NCBI GenBank assembly: GCA_045534635.1
Contig: JAZSKB010000051.1
Location: 4,663-68,662, forward strand
Source of the DNA: Bacteroidales bacterium
GTDB taxonomy: Bacteria > Bacteroidota > Bacteroidia > Bacteroidales > WCHB1-69
Direction: 5' to 3'
DNA: 64,000 bases
The notes under the pieces are model-generated. The model saw nothing but the letters and a program-made list of their open reading frames with translations, had not been told where the DNA came from and did no database searches. Made by a program: the position numbers and the translations under genes. Shown piece by piece: positions 3,298-39,069 of the stretch (positions within the stretch are counted from its first letter, which is position 1; each line of letters opens with the position of its first letter).

Positions 3298-4296
3298 ATG
3301 AAAAAAATATTTTGTATTTATATAGCAATAGTTTCATTTTTTTCAGCATGTAATGGTTTAGGTTCCAACGAAGCAGGATTGTTATCCTCTTCTGGTCGTT
3401 CTAGTGAAATTATGGTTGTTTGTCCCAATTCTGATTGGAAAACTACTTTGGGAGATAGTTTACAAAGTGTTTTAATGCAACCTTTACCTCATCTTCCACA
3501 AGAAGAACCTTTTTTTACTTTGTCACACGTAACTGCAGAAAATTTTTCTGCAGCTTATCAAAAACAAAGAAATATTCTCTATTTTGATATTAATTCAAAA
3601 ATCAACGACCCTAAGGTAACGATAAGTTATAATGTATGGGCAGAACCTCAAATATTAATTCGTATTTCTTCCAATAGCATTGATAATGCTATATCATTGT
3701 TTTCTAATAATGCCGATAAAATTAAAAATCTTGTTCTTCAAAGTGAATTTAAACGATTTCATCGTGCTCACCTTTCTCGACAAGATTTCAAAATCTCTTC
3801 TATTTTAAAACAAAATTATAATCTTGATATGATTGTTCCTCAAGGTTATTTTTTTGCAGTAAAACGAAAAGATTTTCTTTGGCTTAGAAAAGAGACCAAA
3901 GATTGGGGTCAAAATGTAATGATATTTATTGAAAACTATACCGATACTTGTCAATTCAATAAAAATTATATTCTCAATTTACGTGATACTCTTTCCAAAA
4001 AATATGTTTTTGGCTCTGTTGAAAATTCGTATATGACAACAGAAAAAAATATTTTACCTGCCGAATGTTACTATATGTATAATAATCCGTATTATACAAT
4101 AAAAACAGAAGGGTTATGGAAAATGAATGGAGATTTTATGGGAGGTCCTTTTATCAGTTATACAATGCTTGACACAATTTTCAATCGTGTGGTAACAGTT
4201 GATGGTTTTTTGTATGCACCTTCTGATTCTAAACGAGATTTGTTACGACAAATTGAGACTATATTAAAATCAACGGTTTTCATTTCCAATGAATAG
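3298..4296 (+). CDS. Hypothetical lipoprotein (possibly DUF4837-like)
   Basis: ATG at 3298 gives MKKIFCIYIAIVSFFSAC, a lipobox signal peptide. The DUF assignment is recall only, with no catalytic motif recognised. Confidence 0.5.
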   Translation: MKKIFCIYIAIVSFFSACNGLGSNEAGLLSSSGRSSEIMVVCPNSDWKTTLGDSLQSVLMQPLPHLPQEEPFFTLSHVTAENFSAAYQKQRNILYFDINSKINDPKVTISYNVWAEPQILIRISSNSIDNAISLFSNNADKIKNLVLQSEFKRFHRAHLSRQDFKISSILKQNYNLDMIVPQGYFFAVKRKDFLWLRKETKDWGQNVMIFIENYTDTCQFNKNYILNLRDTLSKKYVFGSVENSYMTTEKNILPAECYYMYNNPYYTIKTEGLWKMNGDFMGGPFISYTMLDTIFNRVVTVDGFLYAPSDSKRDLLRQIETILKSTVFISNE

Positions 4297-5731: not shown

Positions 5732-6651
5732 TCTAACATAAGAGACATAAAAGGCAATTGCAAAATTGTTTTGAATAACAGTTCAATATCTGAATGTTCT
5801 TTCCATTTGTGTTGTAATTTATCAGGCAGACAATCTTGAATTATTTCTGCATTGGTGACACGCCACATTCCCAAAAGTTCATAATTTTCTTTTTTCGTTG
5901 TTGGTTGAAATAAATACAAATTATCTATTTGATAATACAACATTATGTTGTTTAGTATCAATTCTTTATTTTTATGATTTGTTAATAACTCTTTTACGAT
6001 TAAGTCTCCATTTTGAAAAGAACAAAACGCCAAAGCACTTATTTGTTCATTAGTTTTTAGTGCAAAAATATTTCCTTTTGCTAAACGATAATCTTGAAAA
6101 ATTACTTTAAAATCGTCTATAGTTTTTTGTATGCAAAAATCTCTTTTTTGAGAATGTTCGTTATAAAATTGATATGCCAAAGCAATTTGATTATCTGTAA
6201 TTGGAAAAATTTTTTCCGATGCTTGACTATTTGTAAAAAAAACTTTATTTTTTTGATAACCAAATGCTTGTATATATCCTAATTGATTGTAAAAATTCAC
6301 CAACCATTTCTCTTGAGGAATAAGAACAGAAAACGCAATATTGTTTTGTTCATTAATAATAAATGATTTTTGTAATAAACTTTTCATCAATCCTTTTCCG
6401 CGAAATTCTGGCAAGGTAGCCGCTCCCGATATATATACAATATTGACCTTTTTACCAAAAAAAGTCATTGTATAAGGTAACATTTGAATAGCGGCAATTA
6501 CACGATTGTTGAAACGATATACTAAAGTATATTCTTTTTTGTATTTTTCACGAAAATACATATCTACAAAACATTCACTATCATCAGGAAAACAAATTTT
6601 CCATAGTTGTACCAAGTCATTAAAATCCGTATTTTGAGCAAAATCTATCAT
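5728..6651 (-). CDS. GNAT family N-acetyltransferase (Eis-like length)
   Basis: 307 aa. Acetyl-CoA pocket motif LPEFRGKGLMKSLL. ATGA stop/start overlap with the upstream gene. Confidence 0.7.
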   Translation of the reverse strand: MIDFAQNTDFNDLVQLWKICFPDDSECFVDMYFREKYKKEYTLVYRFNNRVIAAIQMLPYTMTFFGKKVNIVYISGAATLPEFRGKGLMKSLLQKSFIINEQNNIAFSVLIPQEKWLVNFYNQLGYIQAFGYQKNKVFFTNSQASEKIFPITDNQIALAYQFYNEHSQKRDFCIQKTIDDFKVIFQDYRLAKGNIFALKTNEQISALAFCSFQNGDLIVKELLTNHKNKELILNNIMLYYQIDNLYLFQPTTKKENYELLGMWRVTNAEIIQDCLPDKLQHKWKEHSDIELLFKTILQLPFMSLMLD

Positions 6652-7535
6652 TTCAAAATGGCATTGTATCTATGTAACATTTTATATGGTTGATAAGATA
6701 ATTTTGCTTTTCTTAAACCAGCCTCTCCCATATCTTCTTCTCTATTGATATAAACAATTTCATTTGGTAAAACACTCAAAAACAACTTGTTAATAATTGT
6801 ATATGCTCCTTTATAATTTGCAAGTGCTTTTTCTATATTTACATCAAAAGTAGAATTATTGATAAAACTTCCTAAAGTAAAAGCGATTACATTTCCTTCA
6901 ACACGCAAAACGCCTCCTATCATATCCAATTGTTCAAAATTAATTAGTGCTTTTTTTACAGCACAACTTTCTTGTTGCAATGAGCAATTTTCTTCGCCAC
7001 AATCATTTTCTTTTGACCACAATTCATGCATTGACAAACATTCTTTTATATCATTTTTTGTCATTGGATGAAATGTATAATTGTATGTCTTTTCAAATTG
7101 ATGAATGTGATTGCGTTTTGGTTGTAATTTCTTGCCAGACAACGAAATAAGATTTTCTTTCAAATACAAATATTCTGAACTATTTCTTTCATACGAAATT
7201 TCAAATTGATTAGGAAACATTTCTTCTAATTCTTTTTTCATAGAATCATTAAGGTTAACAAAAATCAATTGTTTTTTTTCTTGTTGAGTACTTTCTATCA
7301 ACTTTGATATTAATTTTTTTTTATCTCCATTTCCTATAGGAAAATTATAATAGATTTCATCAACCCCTCCACGAATTAAAAGCAATTGATTTTCAATAAT
7401 ATAATGCGGTAAAAAATGTTCTCCCCAAATAATGAAATTAACAAAATTGTGGGTACATATTTGTGACAATGAATTGAATAAAATAGGTTTTATTATTGAT
7501 TTATCTTCTATTGTTATCGGACGAAATTCCATCAT
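6648..7535 (-). CDS. DUF2156 domain protein (related to the C-terminal aminoacyl-transferase domain of MprF)
   Basis: 295 aa. The length and pattern are recalled as the standalone DUF2156 family. ATGA overlaps occur on both sides. Confidence 0.5.
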   Translation of the reverse strand: MMEFRPITIEDKSIIKPILFNSLSQICTHNFVNFIIWGEHFLPHYIIENQLLLIRGGVDEIYYNFPIGNGDKKKLISKLIESTQQEKKQLIFVNLNDSMKKELEEMFPNQFEISYERNSSEYLYLKENLISLSGKKLQPKRNHIHQFEKTYNYTFHPMTKNDIKECLSMHELWSKENDCGEENCSLQQESCAVKKALINFEQLDMIGGVLRVEGNVIAFTLGSFINNSTFDVNIEKALANYKGAYTIINKLFLSVLPNEIVYINREEDMGEAGLRKAKLSYQPYKMLHRYNAILK

Positions 7536-9049
7536 TTTTTACAATGTTCTTTTCTTAATAAATCGTTGATTGTCTTTACAGGAGAAAAAGTCGAAAGAGG
7601 TACGGAAACAAATATTGTCAACCAATTGGACATTGCTCCATTCCACAATCCCGGATTTTCTATTGCTTTGATATTTTTGCCTTCAAATGTTTTATTTGTA
7701 ACAAAAAAACGCTGATAATCAATATATTGATACAAATCAAAAGATTCTCCTTTATAATTTTTTGTTGCACAAACCAAATCTACAGGATTAAAAAATTGTG
7801 AACTTTCTAAAATATTTTTTTGTAATTGATTATCAAGATTAATTTCCGATGTTTCAACTATCTGTAAATTTTCTTCATTATTTTCTGTATTGTAAACCCA
7901 AAAAGGACCTCCTCCGGGTTCGCCTTCTTGTTTTACTACTCCACAAACACGTATCGGACGATTGAGTAATCGGTACAAATATTGTACTTTTTTTTCTTCG
8001 CTAAGTTGTTTGTAATAATCGGACAATTTTACAAAAAAACATTTTTGAAGAATATTTTCTGCTTTTTGAATATTTTCAGCTATTTTCGTTTGATTATCAA
8101 ATTGTTGTAAAACAGAAAAAATATCCTGTTGAAAATCTAACAACAAAGATGCTAAGATTTTTTTATATTTTATGGTATCTGCACGTAAATCGTCGGTAGT
8201 AACATTGTCAATATTTTTTATAAAAATAACATCTGCATCTATTTCATTAAGATTTTTTATCAAACTACCATGTCCTCCTGGACGAAAAACCAATCGATTG
8301 TTTTTATCTCTAAACAATTCATTGTTACAATCAAATGTCAAAGTATTTGTTGAAGAATGTTGAAAAGAATAAGTAACATCGAATTTTACATTAAACAAAA
8401 CTTCGTATTGATTGACAAAATTTGCTACATTTTGGCAAAATAAATCAGAGTGTTCTGGTGAAATCGTAAAATGAACACGAGCGACATTATTTTTATTTGT
8501 TGTATAAGCAACACTTTCTATCAAATGTTCTTCTATAGGAGTTCTTATTTCTTGATTATATTTATGAAAATGCAACAAACCTTTTGGCAAATGAAGATAA
8601 TTAAGACCTTTTTCAAACAAAAGATATTTAAAAATAGTTGTGTAATCTTTTTCTTGAATAAGTGTTTCTATTTGTAAACCATCTTGTTGCATTTTTTCTT
8701 TCAATTTGGGATAAAAAGCAAATGATGACAAATTTTCAACAACAACTTTTACCGATTCAGATTCAACATTTTCATTGATAAAAGTAACAATATCTTTAAA
8801 CATTCGAGTAGCCGCTCCCGAAGCAGGAACAAATTTTACAAGTTTTTTTTCTCCTACTTTCTTTTTATAATTGCCTAACATTGAATTAATTTTGTCTTCT
8901 TCAATAACATACAATCCATTGTTAGCAACAATTGGTGCGAACAATTCTACTTTTGATTTATCACAAGTTATTACGGACATTTGATTATTAATATCCGAAA
9001 TCGAAATACCTTGTTGAGAAATATCATTATAATCTTGTTCTGTAAACAC
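7532..9049 (-). CDS. DUF4301-like protein with a predicted UDP-sugar pyrophosphorylase-like nucleotidyltransferase fold
   Basis: 505 aa with an apparent GTG start. FVPASGAATRMFK and RPGGHGSL resemble UGPase-family glycine-rich and GHG motifs. Confidence 0.5.
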   Translation of the reverse strand: MFTEQDYNDISQQGISISDINNQMSVITCDKSKVELFAPIVANNGLYVIEEDKINSMLGNYKKKVGEKKLVKFVPASGAATRMFKDIVTFINENVESESVKVVVENLSSFAFYPKLKEKMQQDGLQIETLIQEKDYTTIFKYLLFEKGLNYLHLPKGLLHFHKYNQEIRTPIEEHLIESVAYTTNKNNVARVHFTISPEHSDLFCQNVANFVNQYEVLFNVKFDVTYSFQHSSTNTLTFDCNNELFRDKNNRLVFRPGGHGSLIKNLNEIDADVIFIKNIDNVTTDDLRADTIKYKKILASLLLDFQQDIFSVLQQFDNQTKIAENIQKAENILQKCFFVKLSDYYKQLSEEKKVQYLYRLLNRPIRVCGVVKQEGEPGGGPFWVYNTENNEENLQIVETSEINLDNQLQKNILESSQFFNPVDLVCATKNYKGESFDLYQYIDYQRFFVTNKTFEGKNIKAIENPGLWNGAMSNWLTIFVSVPLSTFSPVKTINDLLRKEHCKK

Positions 9050-27031: not shown

Positions 27032-29788
27032 TTAATTTCCATTCTTAATTTTTAATTGTTCTTCCAAATCTTGAATATTTATAATACGAACTTCGCGAAC
27101 TTTACTACCGATAGAAGGACCTACAATACCTTCTCTTTCAAGTTGGTCCATTATTCTTCCTGCTCTATTGTAACCTATTTTAAATTTACGTTGCAAGAAA
27201 GATGTTGAACCTTGTTGTTTTTCTACAACTTCACGAGCGGCATCATCGAACAAGGGGTCAAATTCGCCATCATCTGCCTGTTGTATAGTGGTTTCCGAAG
27301 CATCATCTGCCACTTCTGGCAATAAAAAGGCATCGGTATAACCATGTTGTTCTCCGATAAAAGCACATATTTTTTCTACTTCCGGAGTGTCAACAAGTGC
27401 ACATTGTACACGAGTAATATTACTACCTGTAGATATTAACATATCGCCTCGACCTATTAAATTGTTGGCACCAGTAGCATCTAAAATTGTTCGTGAGTCT
27501 ATTTTTGAAGATACCTTAAAAGCAATTCTCGCTGGGAAATTTGCTTTGATAATACCTGTAATAATATTTACAGAAGGACGTTGTGTTGCAATAATCAAAT
27601 GAATGCCTATTGCTCTTGCCAATTGTGCCAAACGGGCAATTGGTTGTTCTACTTCTCTTCCTGCTGTCATAATACAATCGGCAAATTCATCAAATACCAA
27701 TACAATATATGGAAGAAAACGATGTCCATTTTCTGGATTAAGACATCTTTTTTTGAATTTTTCGTTGTATTCTATAATATTTCTACATTCGGCACTTTTC
27801 AACAATTCGTACCGCATATCCATTTCGTTGCACAATGAATTTAATGTTTTTACTACTTTTTTAGTGTCGGTAATAATTGCTTCGGCAGAATCGGGTAATT
27901 TTGCTAAATAATGTCTTTCTATTCGTGCATACAATGTTAGTTCTACCTTTTTGGGGTCAACTAAAACAAATTTCAATTCGGCAGGATGTTTTTTGTACAA
28001 CAAAGATGTTAATACGGCGTTTAAACCTACCGATTTCCCTTGTCCGGTGGCTCCTGCCATTAAAACGTGAGGCATTTTTGCCAAATCGAAAACAAATACT
28101 TCATCGGAAATGGTTTTGCCTATTGCTATTGGCAATGCCATTTTTTCACTATTTTGAAATTTTTCTGATAAAATACATGTTTTCATTGGAACTATTTGAG
28201 GTGTTGTATTGGGAACTTCTATACCTATTGTTCCTTTGCCCGGTATTGGTGCAATAATTCTTATTCCTAATGCTGAAAGGCTCAAAGCAATATCATCTTC
28301 CAAATTTTTAATTTTAGAAATACGAATGCCCGGAGCAGGAACAATTTCATACAATGTAATGGTTGGTCCTTCTATTGCACTTATACTGGATATTTGTATT
28401 TTGTATGTTTCTAATGTATCTTTGATACGTTGTTTGTTTTTTGCTATTTCTGCAATTTTTTCTTCTTTTGTGCGAGTTACATTTGCATAATCTTCCAAAA
28501 AATCTGAACTTGGAAATTGAAAATTAGGCAATTCTGCACGAGGGTCGAATGGTCCAAATCTTGCACACAAGTCTTCGGCTGTCGTTAATTCTTCTCTTGT
28601 ATATTCTATTGGTTCTAATGATTCTTTATCAACATTTTGTTCTTCTTCTGTTTCTTCTGTTGGAATATCTACCACTTCATTGAACATTATTTGTTCATCA
28701 GTTGTTTCTTGAGATAAAATTTCTTCTTCTGTATCATCCAAAAGCACATCTTGACCGCCAAAAGTATCATTTTCAGGATATTCTTCTAAAATATTTTCTT
28801 TAGGCAATTCTACTGTTGTTACAGAAAATGTTAAACGTTCATCAATGGATATTTCTTCATTATTAATATCCTCTTTTTCTTTTAAAGAGGCTATATTCTC
28901 TTCTTTTAAAGATGGTTCTTCCGTTTTTTCTTCTTCTAAATTTATTTGTTTTTTCTTTTTTCTAAACAATTTTGTCCAAATACTCGGTTGTGACAATTGA
29001 GGTTTTTCTATTGTTTCTTCTGGTAAAGTTAAATCAGATGTTGTTTTATTTGTTTGTTCTGGTATTTCTTCGTCAATATCTTCGCATGTTGATTTTTTAT
29101 TTTTTATCAACAATTGCCAACCTCCTAATATTATCAAAATTGCTGAAGCATAAAATAATAGAAGTAAAATTACTCCAATAAAACCTATTTTTTGTTCTAA
29201 ATATAAAAATACATCTTGACATATTTCTCCACTACTCCATTCCGCAATATTGATAGTTGCCGAAAACAACGAAACCCAAATAATAATTGCAATTGTTATT
29301 ACTGTCGTTTTAAACAAAGGCAATATTGATACTTTAAACATCAATCGTACTGCATATAAGAAAAATAATAACAATACTCCAAATGCGGCTATCCCAAACC
29401 ATTTTTTTATAAATAAAAATGAAAAATACATACCCAAAACACCCAACATGTTTTTTACTCTTCCGTCTGCATTGATTTGGAAAAGATTGGTATTGAACAA
29501 ACTATCATCTGCATCGTGGGTGCCTAAAAAAGAAATAAAAGATAATAAAAGAAAAAAAGTAAATATTAACAAAAATAAACCATTCAACACCTTAAATGTG
29601 TCGGATTTCACAAATGCTAAAAAACTTGAACCCTTACTTGTAGATTTTTGTCCTTTGGAGGTGCTTTTTTGGGAAGAACGTTTATTTTTTACTTTCTTTT
29701 TCTTTTCGCCTTTCTCCAACTTTACAGCGGTTTTAGCAACTTGTTTCGACTGATTTACATTTACTTGAAACCTTTCTTTATTCGACAT
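27032..29788 (-). CDS. ftsK: DNA translocase FtsK/SpoIIIE
   Basis: 918 aa with N-terminal TM helices and an acidic linker. Walker A is GATGQGKS, the motor domain is present, and there is a C-terminal winged-helix gamma domain (LQRKFKIGYNRAGRIMDQLE). Confidence 0.93.
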   Translation of the reverse strand: MSNKERFQVNVNQSKQVAKTAVKLEKGEKKKKVKNKRSSQKSTSKGQKSTSKGSSFLAFVKSDTFKVLNGLFLLIFTFFLLLSFISFLGTHDADDSLFNTNLFQINADGRVKNMLGVLGMYFSFLFIKKWFGIAAFGVLLLFFLYAVRLMFKVSILPLFKTTVITIAIIIWVSLFSATINIAEWSSGEICQDVFLYLEQKIGFIGVILLLLFYASAILIILGGWQLLIKNKKSTCEDIDEEIPEQTNKTTSDLTLPEETIEKPQLSQPSIWTKLFRKKKKQINLEEEKTEEPSLKEENIASLKEKEDINNEEISIDERLTFSVTTVELPKENILEEYPENDTFGGQDVLLDDTEEEILSQETTDEQIMFNEVVDIPTEETEEEQNVDKESLEPIEYTREELTTAEDLCARFGPFDPRAELPNFQFPSSDFLEDYANVTRTKEEKIAEIAKNKQRIKDTLETYKIQISSISAIEGPTITLYEIVPAPGIRISKIKNLEDDIALSLSALGIRIIAPIPGKGTIGIEVPNTTPQIVPMKTCILSEKFQNSEKMALPIAIGKTISDEVFVFDLAKMPHVLMAGATGQGKSVGLNAVLTSLLYKKHPAELKFVLVDPKKVELTLYARIERHYLAKLPDSAEAIITDTKKVVKTLNSLCNEMDMRYELLKSAECRNIIEYNEKFKKRCLNPENGHRFLPYIVLVFDEFADCIMTAGREVEQPIARLAQLARAIGIHLIIATQRPSVNIITGIIKANFPARIAFKVSSKIDSRTILDATGANNLIGRGDMLISTGSNITRVQCALVDTPEVEKICAFIGEQHGYTDAFLLPEVADDASETTIQQADDGEFDPLFDDAAREVVEKQQGSTSFLQRKFKIGYNRAGRIMDQLEREGIVGPSIGSKVREVRIINIQDLEEQLKIKNGN

Positions 29789-29867
29789 GTGTAATCAACT
29801 CAAAAATAAATAAAACATTTATTATCAAATAATTATATATTTGTATCTATACAAAATACTCATTTTA

Positions 29868-29875
29868 CAAAGATA
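29868..29875 (-). promoter_or_regulatory. -7 box (TATCTTTG, minus strand) for ftsK
   Basis: Exact TAnnTTTG match ~80 nt upstream of the ftsK ATG. Confidence 0.45.
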
Positions 29876-30081
29876 ATTATTTGATATAATGAGATAATTC
29901 GCTCTAATTATAAATTGTAAACAACGGGGTGTTAATTAATAATGGATAAATACAAAGAGACAAGATACAAAATATTGTTTGTTGATGAGAGCAGATAGGA
30001 AAGATTTTCCAAGATAGACAATCCATTGGAAAAATTGTCAAAAGTATAGAAGAAAGTAGGTTTCGTATTAATTTTTTTTTG

Positions 30082-30089
30082 TATCTTTG
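30082..30089 (+). promoter_or_regulatory. -7 box (TATCTTTG) driving leader repeat copy 1 and gene 30210..31064
   Basis: Exact TAnnTTTG match directly 5' of the conserved leader. Confidence 0.5.
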
Positions 30090-30096
30090 CAAAATG

Positions 30097-30185
30097 AAAC
30101 AACCTTTTTGTTGTGGTTTAGATGGTTCTAAATGCAACCTCAGCTGTCAAAACTGCGGTAAAAGGTAAAGAAGTAAAAATTAGAG
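30097..30185 (+). repeat. Leader repeat R1, copy 1
   Basis: AAACAACCTTTTTGTTGTGGTTTAGATGG...CTCAGCTGTCAAAACTGCGGTAAAAGGTAAAGAAGTAAAAATTAGAG. It ends 25 nt before the ATG at 30210. Copies are at 36259 and 37967. Confidence 0.8.
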
Positions 30186-30209
30186 AGTACCAAAATACCA
30201 CAACCATTC

Positions 30210-31064
30210 ATGAAAGAACTATTTTTTTACATACGATTTGTCTTGTTGCTAATCCTCCCTTGTTTTTCCGCCAAAGCACAAACAGAACGCCACCCGCTTT
30301 GTGACAGTCTGTATAAACATTCGGGAACCTTCTCCGCCGACTCCTCCGTCTACAGTATGCGGATTGGCGACCGAACAATAGACTTCCCTTTATCGTTCAA
30401 AACATGGTGGGGACGAGCATATAGTGCTGAAACCACTTTCGTTGAAAATGGCACCATCTACATCTTCCGTGAGTACTCTTTTAATATTAATTTGGAGACA
30501 CCATGTATTTGCACATCTTTCTATTACATCATCCCTCACAAACATGCAGACCATCCTTCCCACCTGCAAAAAATGTTTTACCGCTGGGAAGACAGTACTT
30601 CATATTTCACCGAATCGGTCAATTACATCTATGAAGCGGGTGTAACGCTTGCACATAACAACTTAAGGGACATGCCACGACACTGGTACCCAATCAAAAA
30701 ATACGACGGAAAGTATTATCTCAGCATAGATTACCCCTATATGACCGAACTGTGCGACAGTGTTGAGGTATTTCACGGAATGGAACTATCCGTTTTACCC
30801 ATCCGGAATGTGTCGAAACAGGGCAACAATTACCATTATGAACTCTGTAACCTGTACGACAACAACAAGTGGTATCGTGTCACACTCTCTCCCTACCAGA
30901 ACAACAAAATGCTGTGGGTTCGCACCGTGGAAAATCCGGATGGAAAAATCAAAAAAGAATTAATGACGACGGAAAAACATGTCCAGCACTTCGACCTGAT
31001 AGAATGGGAATCCAGTGATCATATACCGAATGGACTTGAACACTATGACAAAATTGATTTTTAA
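30210..31064 (+). CDS. Hypothetical secreted protein (island cassette)
   Basis: 284 aa with signal peptide FVLLLILPCFSAKAQ. No domain recognised. GC-richer than the backbone. Confidence 0.55.
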   Translation: MKELFFYIRFVLLLILPCFSAKAQTERHPLCDSLYKHSGTFSADSSVYSMRIGDRTIDFPLSFKTWWGRAYSAETTFVENGTIYIFREYSFNINLETPCICTSFYYIIPHKHADHPSHLQKMFYRWEDSTSYFTESVNYIYEAGVTLAHNNLRDMPRHWYPIKKYDGKYYLSIDYPYMTELCDSVEVFHGMELSVLPIRNVSKQGNNYHYELCNLYDNNKWYRVTLSPYQNNKMLWVRTVENPDGKIKKELMTTEKHVQHFDLIEWESSDHIPNGLEHYDKIDF

Positions 31065-31101
31065 CAGATACATCTCCATAATAACCATTGTGAACTATAT
31101 T

Positions 31102-31132
31102 CTTTCATTATGTAAAAATAACATAATGAAAG
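31102..31132. terminator. Bidirectional hairpin between convergent island genes
   Basis: 11-bp perfect stem CTTTCATTATG/CATAATGAAAG. Confidence 0.55.
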
Positions 31133-31207
31133 TAATTGTTTTTGTCTTATCATTGCATATTGTTTATAAAAACATCTTTGACAAATCTTTTCACAATGGT
31201 GGTGTTG

Positions 31208-32128
31208 CTATCTATTGCGAATCTCTTCTTTGATATTTTTGTCACCGTATTTTTTTGCCTTTTTCAAATAAATCTCCTCTTTTTTCTTGTCACCTATACG
31301 ATTATACGCCTCTGCAATATTGAGTAACACCAACGCATCTCGTGGATTCGCTTCTTCTGCTCTTAACAACCACATCAAAGCGGAGTCTTCCTGCCCCATG
31401 ATATGATAGGTAGCCGCCATTATATTGAGACTAAAGACATCCTGCGGATATAGTCGCAACATACTTTGTGCAATGCTACGTATATAGCATATCTTCAAAG
31501 TATCTTGTATGGTCAGAGTATCAGAATTTGACAACGCATTATATAGTGTCTTCTCATAATCAAAAATTGAATATATCAGTATAGTGTCTATAGATTCAGT
31601 GATATTTGGATACTCCCATGCATTATTGTTTTTTTCAGCATGTTCAAGGGTTGACAGTATCTCATCTGTATAAGATTGCCATCGTCCGCTTTGGCTTAAT
31701 AGGTATATTTTCCCGAAACGCATGTCTAAACGGTCAGGATACCGTAGTATACCCTCTGAAATAATTAAAAGAGCGGAATCTGTCAAGAGGGAATCGTAAT
31801 ATTCCACACCATACATATATCCGGCAACATTCCCTATGCTGTCAGTCAAGGTGAACACTCCGGACACATCTATTCCTTCCGGAAGTTCTGTGGAAAGAAT
31901 AGGACCTTTTGAAACATGTGCCTTATTCACCCAATAATTGTATTCTGCAATGTAACGTTCTGCACTTTGGTCGTTACCGTAACGAATTTCGGACAATGTC
32001 TGCTCAATTGTAGCACTATCATTTTCACGCAAAGCTTTATAAAAGTTGTCATATACATTCTGAGCATCCGCGATTTCGCATGAAAAAGCATATAGCACTA
32101 CAACTACACTGATTATCAATTTTTTCAT
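31208..32128 (-). CDS. Hypothetical secreted TPR-like protein (island cassette)
   Basis: The start is taken at MKKLIISVVVVLYAFSC (32128), which lies downstream of the shared promoter. The C-terminal part looks like TPR helices (NIAEAYNRIGDKKKEEIYLKKA). Confidence 0.55.
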   Translation of the reverse strand: MKKLIISVVVVLYAFSCEIADAQNVYDNFYKALRENDSATIEQTLSEIRYGNDQSAERYIAEYNYWVNKAHVSKGPILSTELPEGIDVSGVFTLTDSIGNVAGYMYGVEYYDSLLTDSALLIISEGILRYPDRLDMRFGKIYLLSQSGRWQSYTDEILSTLEHAEKNNNAWEYPNITESIDTILIYSIFDYEKTLYNALSNSDTLTIQDTLKICYIRSIAQSMLRLYPQDVFSLNIMAATYHIMGQEDSALMWLLRAEEANPRDALVLLNIAEAYNRIGDKKKEEIYLKKAKKYGDKNIKEEIRNR

Positions 32129-32190
32129 AAATAAAAACATTAAAAATTTTGTAATTGCAAAAGTAATCAAAATTTTAAATACTGCCGATA
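32129..32190. repeat. Repeat R2, partial copy (promoter arm only) with minus-strand -7 box at 32158..32165
   Basis: CATAAATAAAAACATTAAAAATTTTGTAATTGCAAAAGTAATCAAAATTTTAAAT is nearly identical to 32974..33030. The minus strand carries TACTTTTG. Confidence 0.75.
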
Positions 32191-32199
32191 TATGCAAAA

Positions 32200-32973
32200 T
32201 CAAGGCAATTCATCCAGTTCAATGCTGACAACCGCGGTTTTTCCGCTGGACGAACCCACATATTTATAGACCAGATTACGGTTGGTGGCTTTAATGGTAC
32301 TAGTCAGACTTTGTGTTGTCACACCATTGACGACTAAATTCTCAATAATCCCTTTCTTCATTTCCGACAGATTATTATTCAAATTGTCAATATCAATAAC
32401 CGACTCATCGCATTCATATATGTAAACGAAACTTTTTTTATCCAACTGCACATCCTTAATCGTCAAGCCCCTGACCACTTCCATAGGAATTTGCATTTTC
32501 ACGTTGTCATAGACGGATTTCAGCAGCATTTCCGGATCGGCATCAGCTCCGGGCATGTTTGCTTTAAGCTCTTCAACAGTGAAGTATATACTGAAGTTCC
32601 TTTCTTTCCCGTCAATAAAAATCAACAGCAGATCCGCATTGGCCCTTATAACTGCTTCAAAAAGCTTTTTAAACGACTCGTTCTGATTATTGGCAAAACC
32701 TAAAAGTACATTGCTGCGCAAGGCGGCCTCATTTGAACGAAAGGAATCAAGATTCATCTGTCCTGCAACAACACCATAGGTTATTACAACCGTGTTATGC
32801 GAATAATCCATATTCTCAATCGACGTATACTCGTCCACCTGAATAGGGCATTCTTTCGCTACTTCTTTGATAATATTTTTAAGTTCCTTTTTGTTTTTTT
32901 GAACATTGCTGCCACATAAGACGTATGATAGCATCAAAGGCAACACAAGTATACTGATTATCAGTTTTTTCAT
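32200..32973 (-). CDS. Hypothetical lipoprotein (island cassette)
   Basis: 257 aa. MKKLIISILVLPLMLSYVLCG shares its first 7 codons with the gene at 31208..32128. Confidence 0.55.
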   Translation of the reverse strand: MKKLIISILVLPLMLSYVLCGSNVQKNKKELKNIIKEVAKECPIQVDEYTSIENMDYSHNTVVITYGVVAGQMNLDSFRSNEAALRSNVLLGFANNQNESFKKLFEAVIRANADLLLIFIDGKERNFSIYFTVEELKANMPGADADPEMLLKSVYDNVKMQIPMEVVRGLTIKDVQLDKKSFVYIYECDESVIDIDNLNNNLSEMKKGIIENLVVNGVTTQSLTSTIKATNRNLVYKYVGSSSGKTAVVSIELDELP

Positions 32974-33205
32974 AAATCAAAACATTGAAAATTTTGTAAT
33001 TGCAAAAGTAATCAAAATTTTAATTCTTAATAACTTTTCCTGTGAAAATTTTCCTTTGTTGCTTTATATCCGCAGTGGAATATATTCCGATTGGTTCGTC
33101 TCACAAGGACTGCTTTTTCAATTGCGGGAGGCAATATTCCGTGCATCTTTCCGTTATATAAAAATAACATTGGGAAACATCCATGCATAAAACAGGTTCA
33201 GTGCT
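32974..33205. repeat. Repeat R2, full copy a: divergent intergenic module (minus-strand -7 box at 33003..33010)
   Basis: Shares long identical strings with 35336..35630: GCAAAAGTAATCAAAATTTTAATT, TTCCTTTGTTGCTT, CCGATTGGTTCG.CTCACAAGGACT, CAATATTCCGTGCATCTTTCCGTTAT. Confidence 0.8.
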
Positions 33206-34201
33206 ATGAATATCAGAGACATCTTTGGTTTCCGCGAGCACCGGCACACGACGGAAAGATTGCGGCACGTGGCCTTCGGGCATGCCGCCACCGCCTGTGG
33301 TGCGATGGTGACGCTGGCTGCTTTCTATACATTATGGATACTGATCATGCATTGTACGATGGAGGACGATCCGCATCATCTCTTTGTCAAACAGATGAAG
33401 AGCGGCAACGTGGTCATAAAACGGCTCAACGCCTACCGCGACAGCTGCGGTGTTTTCCCGGAAGGTCTTGAAAGTATCGGCTTCCGTAAATTACACGGGG
33501 ATAACTTCTTCGGCGTCCAGAACCCCTTCTCTGTATATTATCACATTTTTGAGTATATCCGGCTGGACGACACCTCCTTCTATCTTGGATATGAGGATTG
33601 GTCTGGCGGAAGAGAACAATACTTGTCGTCCGAAGAACGGTGGCGGATGGTCATATATGGATGTGATGAGCATTCAGAAAGACTTCCTGACTACTATGAA
33701 GGTCGGGATGTTACTTCCGTCTATCTGCACGAATATGAAATAGCGGATCATCAGGACACCATACGGAAACTGCTGGAAACGCTTATAGATAACCGTAACG
33801 ATGCCGGACAGCAGTTCCTGCTGACGTTTTTCCACAGTTATGATACGGCATACAGCCATTTCTCCGAGGATTTCACATATAGGGAGGATACCGTTTATCG
33901 CATACGCCACAACAGCGTTTTACAAACATTTGACCTTTCGAAGCCTTATGCCTATCTGGACATGTTCAGCGATATTGACGGCTACCTTCTGATAAACGGG
34001 CATATCTGCTTTTTTTCTGATAGGTCATGGTATCCCATCGCTCGCCGAAGGCTGCATCAGACTGGCAGGGGACGGGTATTCACCGATCCTGTCAATTTAA
34101 AACCGAGCGTTGGCAACGACCAGTGCTGGTTTCTTGACATGGAGTTCCACTACTACGGTGGTAAAGCATCGCTACAGGGGACATGTATTCTTACATGGTA
34201 A
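33206..34201 (+). CDS. Hypothetical membrane-anchored protein (island cassette, most GC-rich segment)
   Basis: 331 aa with one N-terminal hydrophobic helix (MVTLAAFYTLWILIM). No domain recognised. Confidence 0.5.
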   Translation: MNIRDIFGFREHRHTTERLRHVAFGHAATACGAMVTLAAFYTLWILIMHCTMEDDPHHLFVKQMKSGNVVIKRLNAYRDSCGVFPEGLESIGFRKLHGDNFFGVQNPFSVYYHIFEYIRLDDTSFYLGYEDWSGGREQYLSSEERWRMVIYGCDEHSERLPDYYEGRDVTSVYLHEYEIADHQDTIRKLLETLIDNRNDAGQQFLLTFFHSYDTAYSHFSEDFTYREDTVYRIRHNSVLQTFDLSKPYAYLDMFSDIDGYLLINGHICFFSDRSWYPIARRRLHQTGRGRVFTDPVNLKPSVGNDQCWFLDMEFHYYGGKASLQGTCILTW

Positions 34202-34212
34202 AAAAATGCACG

Positions 34213-34410
34213 TCACCACGGCTGATGCTGTTGGAGAAAGATTTCCTTCACGCCATGTCTGGGGACCCCAATAAAATTCGGAAAAAAAACTCCCTTCATG
34301 GCGGATGATGTATGATTTCCCGTCCTGATGCACCCTTCAACTATGATAATCTTCTCCATTGGAGAGTTAAAATATTTTTTAAGAATTGATTGTATCTTTC
34401 TTTCAAGCAT
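34213..34410 (-). pseudogene. Possible N-terminal fragment of an AAA-type ATPase gene
   Basis: 65-aa ORF. MLERKIQSILKKYFNSPMEKIIIVEG.IRTG resembles the N-terminus (up to the P-loop position) of Bacteroidales AAA/DUF4143-type ATPases, but the P-loop is destroyed. Confidence 0.25.
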
Positions 34411-34459
34411 GGTCCGTCACATTTTCTATCCGATAAAAATACAACCTTTTCCGATTTTT

Positions 34460-35335
34460 TCATCCCTGACAGGCTTCGCAGAAACTGCTGGCGTTTTTGC
34501 GTAAATAAGCAACCAGCAACGCATCAATATTCTCTTCTTTATCTAAACGGGAAAATTTATCAACCAGATGAGACATTTTATTAAACATCGGATCCGATTC
34601 CTTCTCCTCCGTCCATTCGGTACAGCAGAAACGTTCGTTCTCCTCCGTCATAATTGTTTGCAACGCCTCCGCATGTTTCACAGCACCAATTTCACGATAG
34701 GCACGAATAAGAAGGTATTCTCCGTCAAAAGACTTCTTCCAACCTTCTCCTTCACAGACAATATTGTAGAAAATATCGATATAATAAAGGTAATAACATA
34801 TATCTTGCACGTGTTTATGTTCATCAGATAAATTTTTATCATAATGGAAATCGCTGCACCAATCTATAAGCTCCTCATCATAAAGGCTGTCAAACAGTTC
34901 GCGGGTCATACGGGGAAAGCGAGCAAGTTCGGCAGTTTTTTCAAACTGTTTCAAAATACTTGTTCTACGATAAAGATATATAGCTAACAACAGACAAGGA
35001 ATACTTCCGAAAAGCAGGGTTATCTTCAAAATGTCGAAACTACTGTATTTCTGCCAAATTTCCTCCAAACCCATTATAATGAATAGAAAAAATATTAATG
35101 GAATTAATGAAAAAAACAGCATAAGTGGAATATAGACCCACAGATTTAAACGCTCCCTCCGCCCTGTGGAACCAGTTGTGACTTCACAATAAGCGTAATG
35201 ACGTTTCGCACCGCAGTAGGGACAGGTACGCACAAACACCTCACCCTCTTTCTCTCGAATCTCATCCACCGTCTCATAACGGCCTTTGATAGGGATATGC
35301 TCTCCACACTTGCCGCAATTTACATAGTATTTCAT
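34460..35335 (-). CDS. Zinc-ribbon / two-TM protein with a DUF4375 (DMP19)-like C-terminal domain (island cassette)
   Basis: 291 aa. CGKCG...CPYCG zinc ribbon and two hydrophobic helices. The C-terminal helical domain tentatively resembles the DMP19/immunity-type fold. Confidence 0.5.
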   Translation of the reverse strand: MKYYVNCGKCGEHIPIKGRYETVDEIREKEGEVFVRTCPYCGAKRHYAYCEVTTGSTGRRERLNLWVYIPLMLFFSLIPLIFFLFIIMGLEEIWQKYSSFDILKITLLFGSIPCLLLAIYLYRRTSILKQFEKTAELARFPRMTRELFDSLYDEELIDWCSDFHYDKNLSDEHKHVQDICYYLYYIDIFYNIVCEGEGWKKSFDGEYLLIRAYREIGAVKHAEALQTIMTEENERFCCTEWTEEKESDPMFNKMSHLVDKFSRLDKEENIDALLVAYLRKNASSFCEACQG

Positions 35336-35630
35336 AACTTTATTTTTTAAATGGCAAAAGTAATCAAAATTTTAATTTTTTATAACTTTTCCTATGAAAT
35401 TTTTCCTTTGTTGCTTTTAATCTGTAGATGGGATATATTACCGATTGGTTCGCCTCACAAGGACTATTTTTTCAATAAAATAAACTTGCATTACGTTTTC
35501 TTCACTCATTCCACCTGCGTTTTTTCGGTTGCGGAACGCAATATTCCGTGCATCTTTCCGTTATGTAAGAAATAACATTTGGGAATATCCATAAAAAAAA
35601 CAGTATTAACAGTTTAAAGCAGATTCTATT
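35336..35630. repeat. Repeat R2, full copy b, with an internal ~55-nt insertion (minus-strand -7 box at 35355..35362)
   Basis: Same module as 32974..33205, plus extra sequence ATAAAATAAACTTGCATTACG...GGTTGCGGAACG between the two conserved arms. Confidence 0.8.
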
Positions 35631-36203
35631 ATGAAACAAATTATTCTACTCGTTGTCATTTTAATAATAGTCATTGCCATTCTGTTGCTGAAATTCAAAT
35701 TCCATTACCCTGATGTAACGAAAGATGCTTTTGTTGAAAAAAACAAATCAATGGAAAAAAGAGTGATTTTGATTGAAGAAATGAGTGAAGAACAATTGAA
35801 TGATGCCATTCATGAATTTATTGGCATGTACAAGGATAATATAGATATTTCTACTTTGGAAGAACCGCTTGTTACACGCTACGAAAAAGGATTTCTTCTC
35901 ACCTTTTCTGCAAACGTTGACTATGATTTGTTTTGCTTTTGGGTGAATTATCTTGTTTATTCCGATAAGGAACAGAAAGAAAGATATTCAGTTTACGGAT
36001 GGTATCCTTTCGGTGAAGTGGAACGTCAGAAAGAAACCATAAATTTCAGCGGTAAAACCATTATGCTTTACATTCCCAAAGAGGATGACGAATTTGATAA
36101 TGTGTATATAATTACACCTGACAATCAATATTATAAGAATGAGTTTGCTGGAACGACGAAGGCAATCTCCCCTCGTAAGGAACAATACCGCCTAAAACCT
36201 TAA
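35631..36203 (+). CDS. Hypothetical membrane-anchored protein (island cassette)
   Basis: 190 aa with N-terminal TM helix IILLVVILIIVIAILLL. Confidence 0.5.
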   Translation: MKQIILLVVILIIVIAILLLKFKFHYPDVTKDAFVEKNKSMEKRVILIEEMSEEQLNDAIHEFIGMYKDNIDISTLEEPLVTRYEKGFLLTFSANVDYDLFCFWVNYLVYSDKEQKERYSVYGWYPFGEVERQKETINFSGKTIMLYIPKEDDEFDNVYIITPDNQYYKNEFAGTTKAISPRKEQYRLKP

Positions 36204-36258
36204 TACCTCCGCATTCAAAAAGTGCAGTGATTCCCTTATTTTATACTGAATTTACGAT

Positions 36259-36347
36259 AAAACAACTCTTTTGTTGCGGTTTAGATAGTTTTATGTAACC
36301 TCGATTGTCAAAAACTGCGATGAAAGGAAAAAAATCGAAAATTAGAG
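36259..36347 (+). repeat. Leader repeat R1, copy 2
   Basis: AAACAACTCTTTTGTTGCGGTTTAGATAG...CTCGATTGTCAAAAACTGCGATGAAAGGAAAAAAATCGAAAATTAGAG. It ends 19 nt before the ATG at 36366. Confidence 0.75.
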
Positions 36348-36365
36348 GTTCCCAAAAATAAAATT

Positions 36366-36908
36366 ATGGCAAGAATAATAAAAATAACAAGGAGTTCATC
36401 TACAGGTTGGTGGGCATGGACAGCAGGAGATTGCTCTGGTTGGGCAAACTCAAAAAGAGAAGCAAGGCGACAAGCTAGAGAAGCTCTATCATCAGGAAAT
36501 TGTGATTGTGAAATAACTCCCCCAAACGGAGGTATTATCGTTAATAATAATTCATCAAATGAAGGAAATAGTACAATTTATTTCCCAGATACGAATGGAA
36601 AAATGAAGGAGTATCCTTTAGATGAAATAAATGAAAATACTGCTATGTGGTTGTTAGGTAGTTGTAATTATATAGAAGAAGACTCAACACCAGAAGAACG
36701 AGTTATTGCTCTTTTAAAAGTTTGGGATATTTATCAAGGAGATATAGTTTTATCTGATATTTTGGTAAATCATAATTTACAAGCAGAGGAATTTTATATT
36801 TTAGCCTCAAAAGAATGGAATTATATATTTATTAATATAGATAACGATGAAAACATTTCATGGACTTTTTCTGATACAGATCCTGATCCTGATTTTGGTA
36901 ACGAATAA
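36366..36908 (+). CDS. Hypothetical protein (island cassette)
   Basis: 180 aa, with no signal peptide and an acidic C-terminus. No domain recognised. Confidence 0.45.
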   Translation: MARIIKITRSSSTGWWAWTAGDCSGWANSKREARRQAREALSSGNCDCEITPPNGGIIVNNNSSNEGNSTIYFPDTNGKMKEYPLDEINENTAMWLLGSCNYIEEDSTPEERVIALLKVWDIYQGDIVLSDILVNHNLQAEEFYILASKEWNYIFINIDNDENISWTFSDTDPDPDFGNE

Positions 36909-37485
36909 TATATATGGGCAAACACCTTTCGGAACGGAAAAGGTAAAAAATGTTGACAATCTGTTTGTAGATTGTTCCGAAGTTACCAATATCAGTTGGA
37001 TGGAATACCTGTATTTCTTAAAGATCGAATACGGAGAAAATTCTCCGCAATATAAAGCTGCTGTTCCTGATACAACTTTGACCGGCTATTCTTTCAAACA
37101 TCCGACATACCGTAACTATCCTGTTGTGGGCATTACTTACGACCAAGCGTTAGCTTATGCCCGATGGCGAACCAAAGCTGCGAACATAATTTTGGAGCAA
37201 TCCAGCAAAAAATATCGTTATGAATATCTATTAGCTTCTGAAGAGGTTCTCCAACAAGCATTTTCACAACAAAAGAGCAAGTTGGGTCAATTGTCGGCAC
37301 TGCAAGCCGTAACATCAAAAAAAATGGTACATATTGATGACAATGCCAAAGAAATCACTTCCGACAAAACCATTGTTATCGGTGCTCAAGGAGAGCAATT
37401 GACATTTGAACCCTATCAAAAACCAGACGCTGCAACAAGTTTCCGTTGTATGGCAAGAGTTGTCAAATGTGTAAAAACGAAATAA
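36847..37485 (+). CDS. Short FGE-sulfatase/SUMF1-fold protein with signal peptide (island cassette)
   Basis: 212 aa. Contains EVTNISWMEY, YPVVGITYDQALAYARWR and a C-terminal SFRCMARV, typical of the formylglycine-generating-enzyme fold. Its 5' 62 nt overlap the preceding ORF. Confidence 0.55.
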   Translation: MKTFHGLFLIQILILILVTNNIYGQTPFGTEKVKNVDNLFVDCSEVTNISWMEYLYFLKIEYGENSPQYKAAVPDTTLTGYSFKHPTYRNYPVVGITYDQALAYARWRTKAANIILEQSSKKYRYEYLLASEEVLQQAFSQQKSKLGQLSALQAVTSKKMVHIDDNAKEITSDKTIVIGAQGEQLTFEPYQKPDAATSFRCMARVVKCVKTK

Positions 37486-37487
37486 GT

Positions 37488-37514
37488 AAGGGAGAAAAGA
37501 CAATCTCCCTTTTA
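37488..37514 (+). terminator. Hairpin terminator after the FGE-fold gene
   Basis: 8-bp stem AAGGGAGA/TCTCCCTT followed by TTTATAATT. Confidence 0.55.
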
Positions 37515-37920
37515 TAATTGATATTCAAAATGGTGATGAAGAAAGCCGCGAAAAGAATAAGATAAAGACACAACGCCCTCACCGAAAAGCATTCAACAGA
37601 CTAGGCATTATTAACTATTGTACCCGACACGTAGGGAGAATTAACTGTGAGCGATTATTATTTTTATCTATCTTCCGATAATGATGATTGGGGAATTGTA
37701 TTCTCAATTAGTGAATTAACCGAGTGGAAAATGATGAGGAAATAAATGAACAAGAACATCTTTAACACCAAAATCAACGACCAGAACACTTACTTTGGAA
37801 ACTTGCCCGATAGTACATGCTAGAAAAGAAATAATTTGCCTATGACACGTTTTGACATAGATGTGTTTTAATTTTGCAGCACAAAATGCAAAAAACTGAT
37901 TATCATAATTATTTTTTATG

Positions 37921-37928
37921 TATATTTG
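37921..37928 (+). promoter_or_regulatory. -7 box (TATATTTG) in front of leader repeat copy 3
   Basis: Exact TAnnTTTG match ~40 nt upstream of the conserved leader core. Confidence 0.45.
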
Positions 37929-37966
37929 CAGATTGAAAATATTGCAGTTTCAGTTTTAAAGGGAAT

Positions 37967-38013
37967 CTCAGCTGTCAAAAACTGCGGTAAAAGGAAAAAA
38001 GTAAAAATTAGAG
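37967..38013 (+). repeat. Leader repeat R1, copy 3 (3' core only, no downstream gene)
   Basis: CTCAGCTGTCAAAAACTGCGGTAAAAGGAAAAAAGTAAAAATTAGAG. It runs straight into a hairpin instead of a start codon. Confidence 0.75.
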
Positions 38014-38029
38014 ATAACCTCTAATTTTT
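38003..38029. terminator. Bidirectional hairpin at the right island boundary
   Basis: Stem AAAAATTAGAG/CTCTAATTTTT with loop ATAAC. Its left arm is the end of leader copy 3. Confidence 0.55.
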
Positions 38030-38412
38030 ATACCTTTGCTTCTAAAAAAAGTATCAATGGTTTTGCCACTTTTTTAAAAGAATTACATGGAATATCATAT
38101 TTCATACCATAAAAACCTTTATGTCCATATTTTGCAACCATTAAAGACATTCCTGTTTTAATTCCAGATAGATAGGTAACCTTTTCAATTTCATTATAAA
38201 AGATTCTTTTTCTTCGATGAAATATTCGCGTCAGAAAAAAAACTTCATAATATTCATCATAAAAATAAAAAATACGAAAAATGAATATAAAATATTAAAC
38301 CTATATAAATACTCAATGGTAGGTAGAATTTATTTATACATAAAACAAATAATGGTAGTACCAATTGTAATGTAATTACATTTCCCCAGTCAATACCAAC
38401 TTTTATTTTCAT
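38028..38412 (-). pseudogene. Possible frameshifted small membrane protein gene (two TM helices plus a bacterial-PH-like tail)
   Basis: The ATG at 38412 opens ~50 codons (MKIKVGIDWGNV...). The +1 frame continues ...YNEIEKVTYLSGIKTGMSLMVAKYGHKGFYGMKYD... to a stop at 38028. The junction lies in T-runs. Confidence 0.3.
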
Positions 38413-38493
38413 TTTTTAGTAATTTTTTACTATACAAAATTTTAAATCAAAGAAAGGAATTTTGAGAAGAAAGAGAATTTTTTGAGATATAAA

Positions 38494-39069
38494 TTAAACC
38501 AATCCAGCAAATCCCATAAAAGCCAACGCTAAAATACCTGCGGTGATAAGAGCAATAGGCATTCCTTGCATATTTTTTGGAGGCTCACACATTTCTATAT
38601 GTTCTCTACATCCAGCAAAAAGAATTAAAGCAAGAGCAAAACCTACGGCGGTGAAAAACGCATACAAGAGAGCACCTCCAAGATTGTAATTTTGTTGAAT
38701 AACCATAATAGATACACCTAAAACAGCACAATTGGTTGTAATTAGTGGTAAAAATATTCCTAATGCTTGATACAACGAAGGACTAATTTTTTTAAGTACA
38801 ATCTCTAACATTTGTACTAATGCAGCAATGATAAGAATATAACAAATAGTCTGTAAAAATACCAAATCAAGAGGAACAAGGATATATTGATAAACTAAAA
38901 AAGTTGCTAATGTTGCCATTGTAGTAACAAAAATTACAGCGGCCCCCATACCAGCAGATGTCGCTATTTTATTGGAAACACCCAAAAAAGGACAAATTCC
39001 TAAAAATTGAGAAAATACAATATTATTTACAAATACTGTCGAAATGATAATAAAAATTAAAGCGGTCAT
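38494..39069 (-). CDS. rnfA: Rnf electron transport complex subunit A
   Basis: 191 aa polytopic protein with RnfA/NqrE-type sequence (NNIVFSQFLGICPFLGVS). Confidence 0.92.
   Translation of the reverse strand: MTALIFIIISTVFVNNIVFSQFLGICPFLGVSNKIATSAGMGAAVIFVTTMATLATFLVYQYILVPLDLVFLQTICYILIIAALVQMLEIVLKKISPSLYQALGIFLPLITTNCAVLGVSIMVIQQNYNLGGALLYAFFTAVGFALALILFAGCREHIEMCEPPKNMQGMPIALITAGILALAFMGFAGLV

Follow-up and report, generated by a model that had tools for sequence, protein, structure and literature searches.

This locus raises the question of why long, nearly identical intergenic sequences stand in front of genes that are otherwise unrelated. In the window, by which we mean the whole stretch of 64,000 nucleotides that was analyzed, a repeat termed R2 occurs as copy A (32974-33205), copy B (35336-35630), and a partial copy C (32129-32186). 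A previous reading of the letters without database searches (the sequence-only reading) had recognized copies at 32974-33205 and 35336-35630 and a partial third from 32129, and had interpreted them as one repeated divergent-promoter module. Our repeat analysis located the same copies, which matched one another at E values of 3e-39 and 2e-28 in a search of the 2.2-Mb, 54-contig genome. We conclude that R2 is a case of promoter reuse plus repeat-mediated loss or gain of cassettes. It is likely that R2 is a composite region with two back-to-back putative promoters, that its core was reused among mosaic cassettes, and that its repeats serve as substrates of homologous recombination. We describe below its anatomy, the unrelated flanking genes, a chimeric N-terminus, the mosaic identity of the copies, and the variant contigs.

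Copies A and C share an 84-nt direct repeat with 92% identity, consisting of the first 11 codons of a gene, a 29-nt leader, and a 22-nt core, whereas copies A and B share blocks of 84 nt (87% identity), 36 nt (92%), and 51 nt (88%). The positions of all parts are summarized in Table 1. Upstream of the minus-strand promoter, the first ~35 nt of the middle segment, M, accompany the core. Copy B is longer than copy A by 53 nt, and this piece is flanked by TTTTTTC microhomology. The sequence-only reading had taken the difference for an insertion of about 55 nt in B; a length difference does exist, but A has undergone a deletion, since five other lineages keep the long form and the piece is missing only from A and from the copy in the relative G007. 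The order of the window was reproduced at ≥ 99.5% identity by more than 10 independent metagenome contigs, which rules out misassembly. R2 is a three-part patchwork of a putative 22-nt promoter core, segment M, and the native upstream region of the gene g331, and not a single mobile module.

Table 1. Positions in the window of the parts of R2 and the adjoining genes, and positions in the relative G007 of a related promoter
Feature	Position	Strand	Remarks
TPR-repeat protein gene, 306 aa	31208..32128	minus	Pfam TPR_17 at 2.6e-6
Copy C, 84-nt direct repeat	32095..32178	minus	First 11 codons of the TPR gene, 29-nt leader, and core; repeat family D7
Copy C, core	32157-32178	minus	-7 box TACTTTTG at 32158-32165
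8-nt junction ATACTGCC	32179..32186	minus	Follows the core wherever another minus-strand cassette sits upstream
Lipoprotein gene, 257 aa	32200..32973	minus	Body unrelated to the TPR gene
Copy A, 84-nt direct repeat	32940..33023	minus	Core at 33002-33023; -7 box at 33003-33010
Copy A, segment M	33024..33113		Includes conserved block CCGATTGGTTCGTCTCACAAGGACT (33087-33111)
Copy A, P+ segment	33114..33205	plus	Upstream region of g331; -7-like box TAACATTG at 33165-33172
g331, membrane-anchored protein, 331 aa	33206..34201	plus	Found only in rumen-type Bacteroidales MAGs
DMP19-like protein gene, 291 aa	34460..35335	minus	Pfam PF14300 at 6e-6; candidate promoter is the core of copy B
Copy B, minus arm	35336..35375	minus	18-nt leader of the DMP19 gene itself and core (35354-35375); -7 box at 35355-35362
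Copy B, segment M	35376..35467		Repeat families D8 and D16
53-nt piece	35468..35520		In B and five other lineages; deleted in A and G007
Copy B, P+ segment	35521..35630	plus	-7-like box AACATTTG at 35574-35581; 27 unique nt, then the ATG of g190
g190, 190 aa	35631..36203	plus	Separated from g331 here; candidate promoter region is copy B
R1-leader promoter in G007	C5:174, C18:17, C27:109, C37:168, C51:18, C56:65301, C59:67076		

No fourth copy of R2 was found in the 2.2-Mb genome; the remaining matches (E = 7e-6 or worse) corresponded to short, generic AT-rich promoter-like sequences. The conserved block CCGATTGGTTCGYCTCACAAGGACT had no other occurrence in the genome, and neither did arm 3, arm 4, or the M blocks, even when five mismatches were allowed, so the idea that R2 marks a regulon was rejected. 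These searches also bear on the suggestion that R2 is a MITE or Correia-like element with outward promoters, or an invertible promoter switch, a suggestion that agrees with its repeated promoter motifs and with the short inverted repeats that flank the -7 box in A and C. However, no more than 16 nt lie between these inverted repeats, which B lacks, and our search for inverted repeats within R2 returned only AT-rich internal pairs. The sequence-only reading had named a MITE with terminal inverted repeats among the findings that would refute its view, and neither such repeats nor target-site duplications were found at the ends of the copies. In addition, the only three copies lie within 3.5 kb of one another, with no counterpart in the rest of the genome, BLAST searches of plasmid and phage collections gave no match to R2, and a single orientation was seen in more than 10 independent assemblies. 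Such an element or switch is therefore extremely improbable. The Bacteroidales type of invertible promoter, in which inverted repeats surround ~100-300 bp and both orientations occur, was rejected because of the 16-nt spacing and the single orientation. A small open reading frame in R2 was rejected as well, because the 53-aa minus-strand frame of A is frameshifted in B.

We then considered the minus arm. The sequence-only reading had noted a common minus-strand motif upstream of the start codons, and the exact box TACTTTTG was indeed present in all three copies, 29 nt before the ATG in A and C and 19 nt before it in B. The motif TAnnTTTG is the -7 consensus of the Bacteroidetes sigma factor sigma-ABfr, and the commonest 5' UTR in published Bacteroides transcript maps is 23 nt long (PMC7366714). 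With this motif at a suitable distance from the gene as the criterion, the minus arm of each copy, in which an exact TAnnTTTG lies 19-29 nt before the ATG, resembles a sigma-ABfr promoter: each box is followed by C, the boxes of A and C lie at the usual distance from the start codon, and the leaders predicted for A and C (~22 nt) and the shorter one for B fit these maps. The R2 boxes account for three of the five TAnnTTTG sites within 31000-36400. The 22-nt core, GCAAAAGTAATCAAAATTTTAA, consists of the box and the 14 nt upstream of it, and these 14 nt (TTAAAATTTTGAT) depart from the AAAAAATGn of the genome's own promoters, whose consensus, obtained from 346 sites, reads AAAAAATGnTAtCTTTGCAAA. 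No site with one to three mismatches from the core was found genome-wide. Convergence onto the promoter consensus was rejected because the upstream half of the core is unlike that consensus; the identity of the cores thus reflects homology, and the core is one specific, reused promoter rather than another match to the consensus. The promoter activity of both arms of R2 is proposed here from their motifs. The core heads the TPR, lipoprotein, and DMP19-like genes in the window and, in relatives, also rsmG. According to the mechanism that we propose, the core would have been spliced, within this genus, directly upstream of the gene-specific leaders of rsmG and of the TPR, lipoprotein, and DMP19-like genes.

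For the genes starting at 32128 (TPR) and 32973 (lipoprotein), the repeat was said to extend into the coding sequence, so that both proteins begin with MKKLIIS and then diverge. This was correct: the 84-nt identity between A and C covers the first 11 codons, and BLASTP aligns only residues 1-11 of the two proteins. To determine which gene owned this N-terminus, we compared the homologues. Among the 95 homologues of the TPR protein, those inspected start with MKKLII, MKRLIV, or MKRLFV; from this comparison, the MKKLII signal-peptide start and the 29-nt leader are judged to be native to the TPR gene. Close homologues of the lipoprotein also carry MKKLIIS, but those at 57-60% identity start with MKIQNNILANRGSW..., and their homology to the lipoprotein begins at about residues 9-11 and runs through the lipobox. 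Since the distant lipoprotein homologues differ at the N-terminus and MKKLII or MKRLIV is native to the TPR family, we infer that the lipoprotein gene took the TPR promoter, the 29-nt leader, and the first 8-11 codons. Capture of this promoter, leader, and start would have produced a hybrid signal peptide. The proposal of promoter capture made by the sequence-only reading is upheld by these distant homologues and by the presence of the core before four different genes; its other proposal, cassette exchange, is largely right as well.

The bodies of the genes had been described as unrelated, and BLASTP and profile-profile comparison (hhalign) led us to the same view. The hhalign probability was < 1% for lipoprotein versus TPR (0.3%), lipoprotein versus DMP19, g331 versus g190 (0.9%), and TPR versus g331. 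An alternative is that R2 arose by ordinary segmental duplication and that its repeats are what remains of duplicated genes that have since diverged. In its favor, BLASTP without composition correction gave E = 5e-4 for TPR versus g331, and A and B can be seen as diverged versions of one R2-g331-g190 locus with complementary losses (see below). All relevant flanking pairs, however, have the hhalign probabilities given above, the TPR and lipoprotein families have separate and wider sets of homologues with different N-termini, and B is no closer to A than to the copies of other species. We therefore regard duplicated genes as a very unlikely source of the repeats. The sequence-only reading had named homology of the flanking genes under sensitive comparison as a refutation of its view, and the hhalign results remove this objection. 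The earlier statement that R2 is not a simple gene duplication is correct with respect to the flanking genes, but part of the A/B similarity is best read as segmental duplication or import, with B in a second, diverged copy of R2-g331-g190 that lost g331.

Several minor observations concern the lipoprotein. In the public gene call, it starts at Met14 (244 aa). In the 257-aa form, the signal peptide is canonical for a lipoprotein (MKKLIISILVLPLMLSYVLC|G), and the protein aligns with a 255-aa homologue over the full length; annotators should be aware that gene callers placed this start 13 codons too late. In the AF2 model, which is of low confidence (pLDDT 61), a part of ~116-120 columns resembles PA3611 and the T2SS pilotin AspS, a likeness that we consider tentative. 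In the metagenome contigs L058 (7663-8432), L059, and L060, the lipoprotein gene was called as two open reading frames of 107 and 143 aa and is probably a frameshifted pseudogene; the split gene adjoins a Kinase-PolyVal gene upstream of rsmG.

The plus arm has a different origin from the core. The search for R2 beside other genes that had been recommended, which covered same-genus genomes and metagenome contigs, showed the full R2 between rsmG (gidB, minus strand) and the homologue of g331 (plus strand) in six other lineages (G007, G004:C3, L043, L045, L054, and L055). Homologues of g331 located beside a Fic gene (L047) or a 288-aa gene (L050) keep the equivalent of 33114-33205 and part of the 53-nt piece, and the rest of R2 is absent there. 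Because the P+ segment stays with g331 in L047 and L050 without the remainder of R2, it is the upstream region of g331 itself, and the description of R2 as a single divergent-promoter module has to be abandoned. In our model, the plus arm would be the own promoter region of a g331(-g190) unit. Its -7-like box has one mismatch in each copy in the window, lies 33 nt before the g331 ATG in A and 49 nt before the g190 ATG in B, and is perfect in L047 (TAGATTTG). In relatives, g190 is located directly downstream of g331 and has no exact TAnnTTTG of its own. For g331, 11 homologues were found, with dN/dS values of 0.2-0.4, indicating purifying selection; its AF2 model (pLDDT 42) was unusable.

It had also been suggested that the plus arm holds a structured RNA. 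If so, the arm might be a cis-regulatory leader, such as a riboswitch, an attenuator, or an sRNA target, that controls g331 and g190, and the conservation of 25-27-nt blocks across three to five lineages that differ by 13-17% elsewhere would agree with this idea. The structural analyses gave a different result. A scan of 29500-38600 yielded no Rfam match at E ≤ 1, the folding z-scores of the two plus arms were -1.0 and -0.19, and the RNAalifold consensus of seven lineages reached only -4 kcal/mol with 0 compensatory pairs. Moreover, two lineages tolerate the 53-nt deletion, and most of the conserved sequence would lie upstream of the transcript if the box at 33165-33172 is the promoter. An RNA leader is thus improbable, and we retain the reading of the plus arm as the putative promoter region of g331.

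Further observations were made around g331. Its homologues in L047, L048, L049, and L044 adjoin Fic, HipA-C/HTH, DUF1016/YhcG, and WG_beta_rep genes, and the family seems, from these neighbors, to live in variable regions rich in defense or toxin genes. In G007 (L036, G007:C21 ~4000-8900), a 5-kb insert with 47-56% GC and open reading frames of 833, 352, 293, and 122 aa lies between g331 and the DMP19-like gene, where the window has 258 nt.

To place R2 in its genomic context, we examined the island and the distribution of the repeat. The horizontally acquired island of this uncultured rumen bacterium occupies 30.1-38.0 kb of the window, between ftsK and rnfA, and its gene order is + - - + - + + +. 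The GC content is 31% in the host, 34-48% in the island genes (48% in g331), and 37-41% in the relatives; judging from composition and gene content, the donors were probably these higher-GC relatives (37-41% GC), which carry these genes upstream of rsmG. In four genomes of the same genus, ftsK was absent within ~7-11 kb beyond rnfA, so an empty site was not demonstrable there. An exact-pattern scan of 185,579 species genomes detected R2 only in UBA1205 and RGIG8187. The relatives bearing R2 are uncultured Bacteroidales MAGs, and RGIG8187 is from water-buffalo rumen. Of the 152 genomes of the family, three, which belong to a single genus, gave an R2 match by BLAST, and a scan of JGI metagenomes gave one contig.

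The identities among the copies are mosaic. Copy A shares 96% identity with its G007 counterpart, and copy B has 83-87% identity with each of the other copies, among them A. Between the window and G007, identity is 95-97% over 33050-~33290 and then 65-90% inside g331. In L054, a 45-nt patch of the G007 type lies inside a copy that is otherwise of the L045 type. Based on these sequences, the island is best read as holding two diverged R2-g331-g190 units, of which unit A kept g331, while unit B lost g331 and kept g190. The equal distance of B from A and from the copies of other species speaks for import or an old merger and against duplication in place. The 8-kb island as a whole would then be a mosaic of cassettes that were joined inside promoter sequences.

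Variant contigs provided evidence on how the arrangement changes. L090 contains the lipoprotein gene, an A-B hybrid R2, and g190, and 2.35 kb (g331 and the DMP19 gene) is absent. The hybrid is of type A up to a 12-nt block (CTCACAAGGACT) and of type B from there, which places the crossover inside M, at least 80 nt from the core. L084 contains the TPR gene, a C-type leader, the core, M, and g331, and the 845-nt lipoprotein cassette is absent; its crossover lies in a 36-nt identical stretch. The contig is from a k = 31 assembly, so the L084 variant could be an artifact of the k = 31 graph, although the contig passes through this stretch unbranched. L090 cannot be one, because A and B share no 31-mer at its crossover and the junction must exist in the reads. 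Both variants are the products expected from homologous recombination between direct repeats, and together they indicate that the R2 repeats act as recombination substrates. Homologous recombination between the repeats would accordingly lead to loss or gain of cassettes, but the direction of these events and their dependence on RecA are proposed only by extension from the variants.

The junctions around the core are highly regular and give reason to consider a further explanation. On its left, the core is joined to the rsmG leader, the TPR-type leader (TPR and lipoprotein genes), or the DMP19 leader; on its right, it is joined to M or to ATACTGCC, after which a further minus-strand cassette begins with its 3' end. 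Across genomes, five of the six left-right combinations were observed, and ATACTGCC also follows the core in G004:C41, L056, and L058-L060, ahead of a TPR or lipoprotein cassette. The point of contact with the core is identical to within 2 nt for the three left flanks, and the sequences of the two right partners part immediately after TTTTAA, in the middle of an imperfect palindrome formed by the core and the start of M. Random illegitimate joining does not predict this precision. The arrangements rsmG-core-TPR-core-M, rsmG-core-lipoprotein-core-M, and rsmG-core-M, seen in relatives, are all derivable from a two-cassette array by core-to-core deletion and thus agree with homologous recombination between direct repeats. 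The precision of the junctions could be due to selection for an intact promoter or to a site-specific mechanism.

According to the latter possibility, the core (22-30 nt, with ATACTGCC) would serve as an attachment site for cassettes built as [ATACTGCC-gene-leader-core], which a recombinase encoded elsewhere would insert and excise; such a dedicated, site-specific system would be comparable with integrons or rAIDs. This would explain the nucleotide-precise junctions, the palindrome with its 17-22-nt arms centered on the junction, and the finding that TPR and lipoprotein cassettes lie between direct copies of the core in three contexts and share the same 8-nt end; rAID-1 arrays in Bacteroidales likewise have repetitive intergenic sequences (10.1101/471110). 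Conversely, the AT-rich palindrome has a complementarity of just 76-77%, gene orientation is mixed, the known instances number only about a dozen and come from a single genus, the only two tyrosine recombinases (PF00589) of the genome are on contigs C37 and C1 with none on C32, and the L090 crossover, at its distance from the core, fits homologous rather than site-specific recombination. We therefore consider an attachment site unlikely. We give the same low weight to the broader version of this idea, in which integron-like capture operates in rumen Bacteroidales with a promoter as its recombination site and the R1-leader promoters, two bases off the core, belong to the same system. If the core were such a site, each captured gene would be expressed on arrival, and only then would R2 represent a new class of mechanism.

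A promoter two to three bases off the R2 core (GCAAAGTTAA[T/A]CAAAATTTTAA) heads the R1-type leader in the copies inspected, namely L063, L071, L072, and, in the genome studied here, C4:120318 and C4:124470. In relatives, a two-mismatch version of the core heads this type of leader. In G007, the R1-leader promoter is present in multiple copies (Table 1), mostly at contig ends, and these copies are probably part of a longer repeat or of a multi-gene family at which assemblies break.

Promoter reuse with repeat-mediated cassette change, the reading that we prefer, can be compared with known systems. The OspE/OspF/Elp genes of Borrelia with their "upstream homology box" and the vlp/vsp genes of Mycoplasma share an upstream region and leader peptide among otherwise unrelated lipoproteins; the promoter, the 5' leader, and the first codons of the signal peptide are conserved, and recombination is the proposed cause. 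The R2 genes similarly share a promoter, a leader, and the first signal-peptide codons in front of unrelated mature proteins. In contrast to those families, just two R2 genes share the 5' end, the host is a rumen commensal, and nothing points to phase variation or to a large variable family of surface antigens.

Putative mobile promoters have been defined as sequences with ≥ 80% identity over ≥ 50 nt upstream of two non-paralogous genes of the same genome (Matus-Garcia, Nijveen & van Passel 2012; commentary PMC3575422). The A and B blocks of 84 and 51 nt exceed these values, and the flanking genes are non-paralogous according to BLASTP and hhalign. A and B are similar upstream of both the plus-strand and the minus-strand gene pairs, and, as in the cases of that survey, no known mobile element is associated with them. 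R2 differs in being a composite of two promoters and in having a history that can be reconstructed from relatives, with recombinant variants in natural populations; furthermore, the A/C pair extends into the coding sequence, a case that the survey filtered out.

The array called rAID-1 is characterized by a XerD-like tyrosine recombinase at its 5' end and by at least two co-directional downstream genes with a GC content of ≤ 41% (Ross et al. 2019, 10.1101/471110). Like rAID-1 and integrons, the island is a compositionally skewed accessory array of small, unrelated, often secreted or immunity-like genes (DMP19-like, FGE-like) with a repeated intergenic sequence. Unlike them, it has no XerD-like or IntI recombinase beside the array, its genes are in mixed orientation with a GC content above rather than below that of the host, its repeats are putative promoters, and one crossover lies outside any candidate site. 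Identification as a rAID-1 array was rejected on the basis of the missing recombinase on C32, the gene order, and the 48% GC of g331. An integron with IntI, attI, and attC hairpins was rejected because there is no linked integrase and just the AT-rich palindrome at the core.

The history of R2 can thus be reconstructed, and it shows how genes that are new to a Bacteroidales genome rich in AT may gain expression signals. The same repeats destabilize the island, as natural variants exist without the DNA between repeat pairs. For annotators, the locus illustrates that the parts of a repeated "module" may have been inherited separately and form a patchwork, and that an apparent insertion can prove to be a deletion after comparison with relatives.

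Two observations were made downstream of g190. A 48-nt stretch (36218-36265) recurs at L056:497-543, directly after a truncated M and beside the 3' end of a different gene; going by these two contexts, it is another short conserved junction piece between cassettes. The 180-aa open reading frame at 36366-36908 carries a nonsense polymorphism (TAT to TAA at 36671) in L085, which is otherwise 99.8% identical, and in L087 and L090 a 101-aa gene was called at this position (from the gene calls alone); this reading frame may be decaying.
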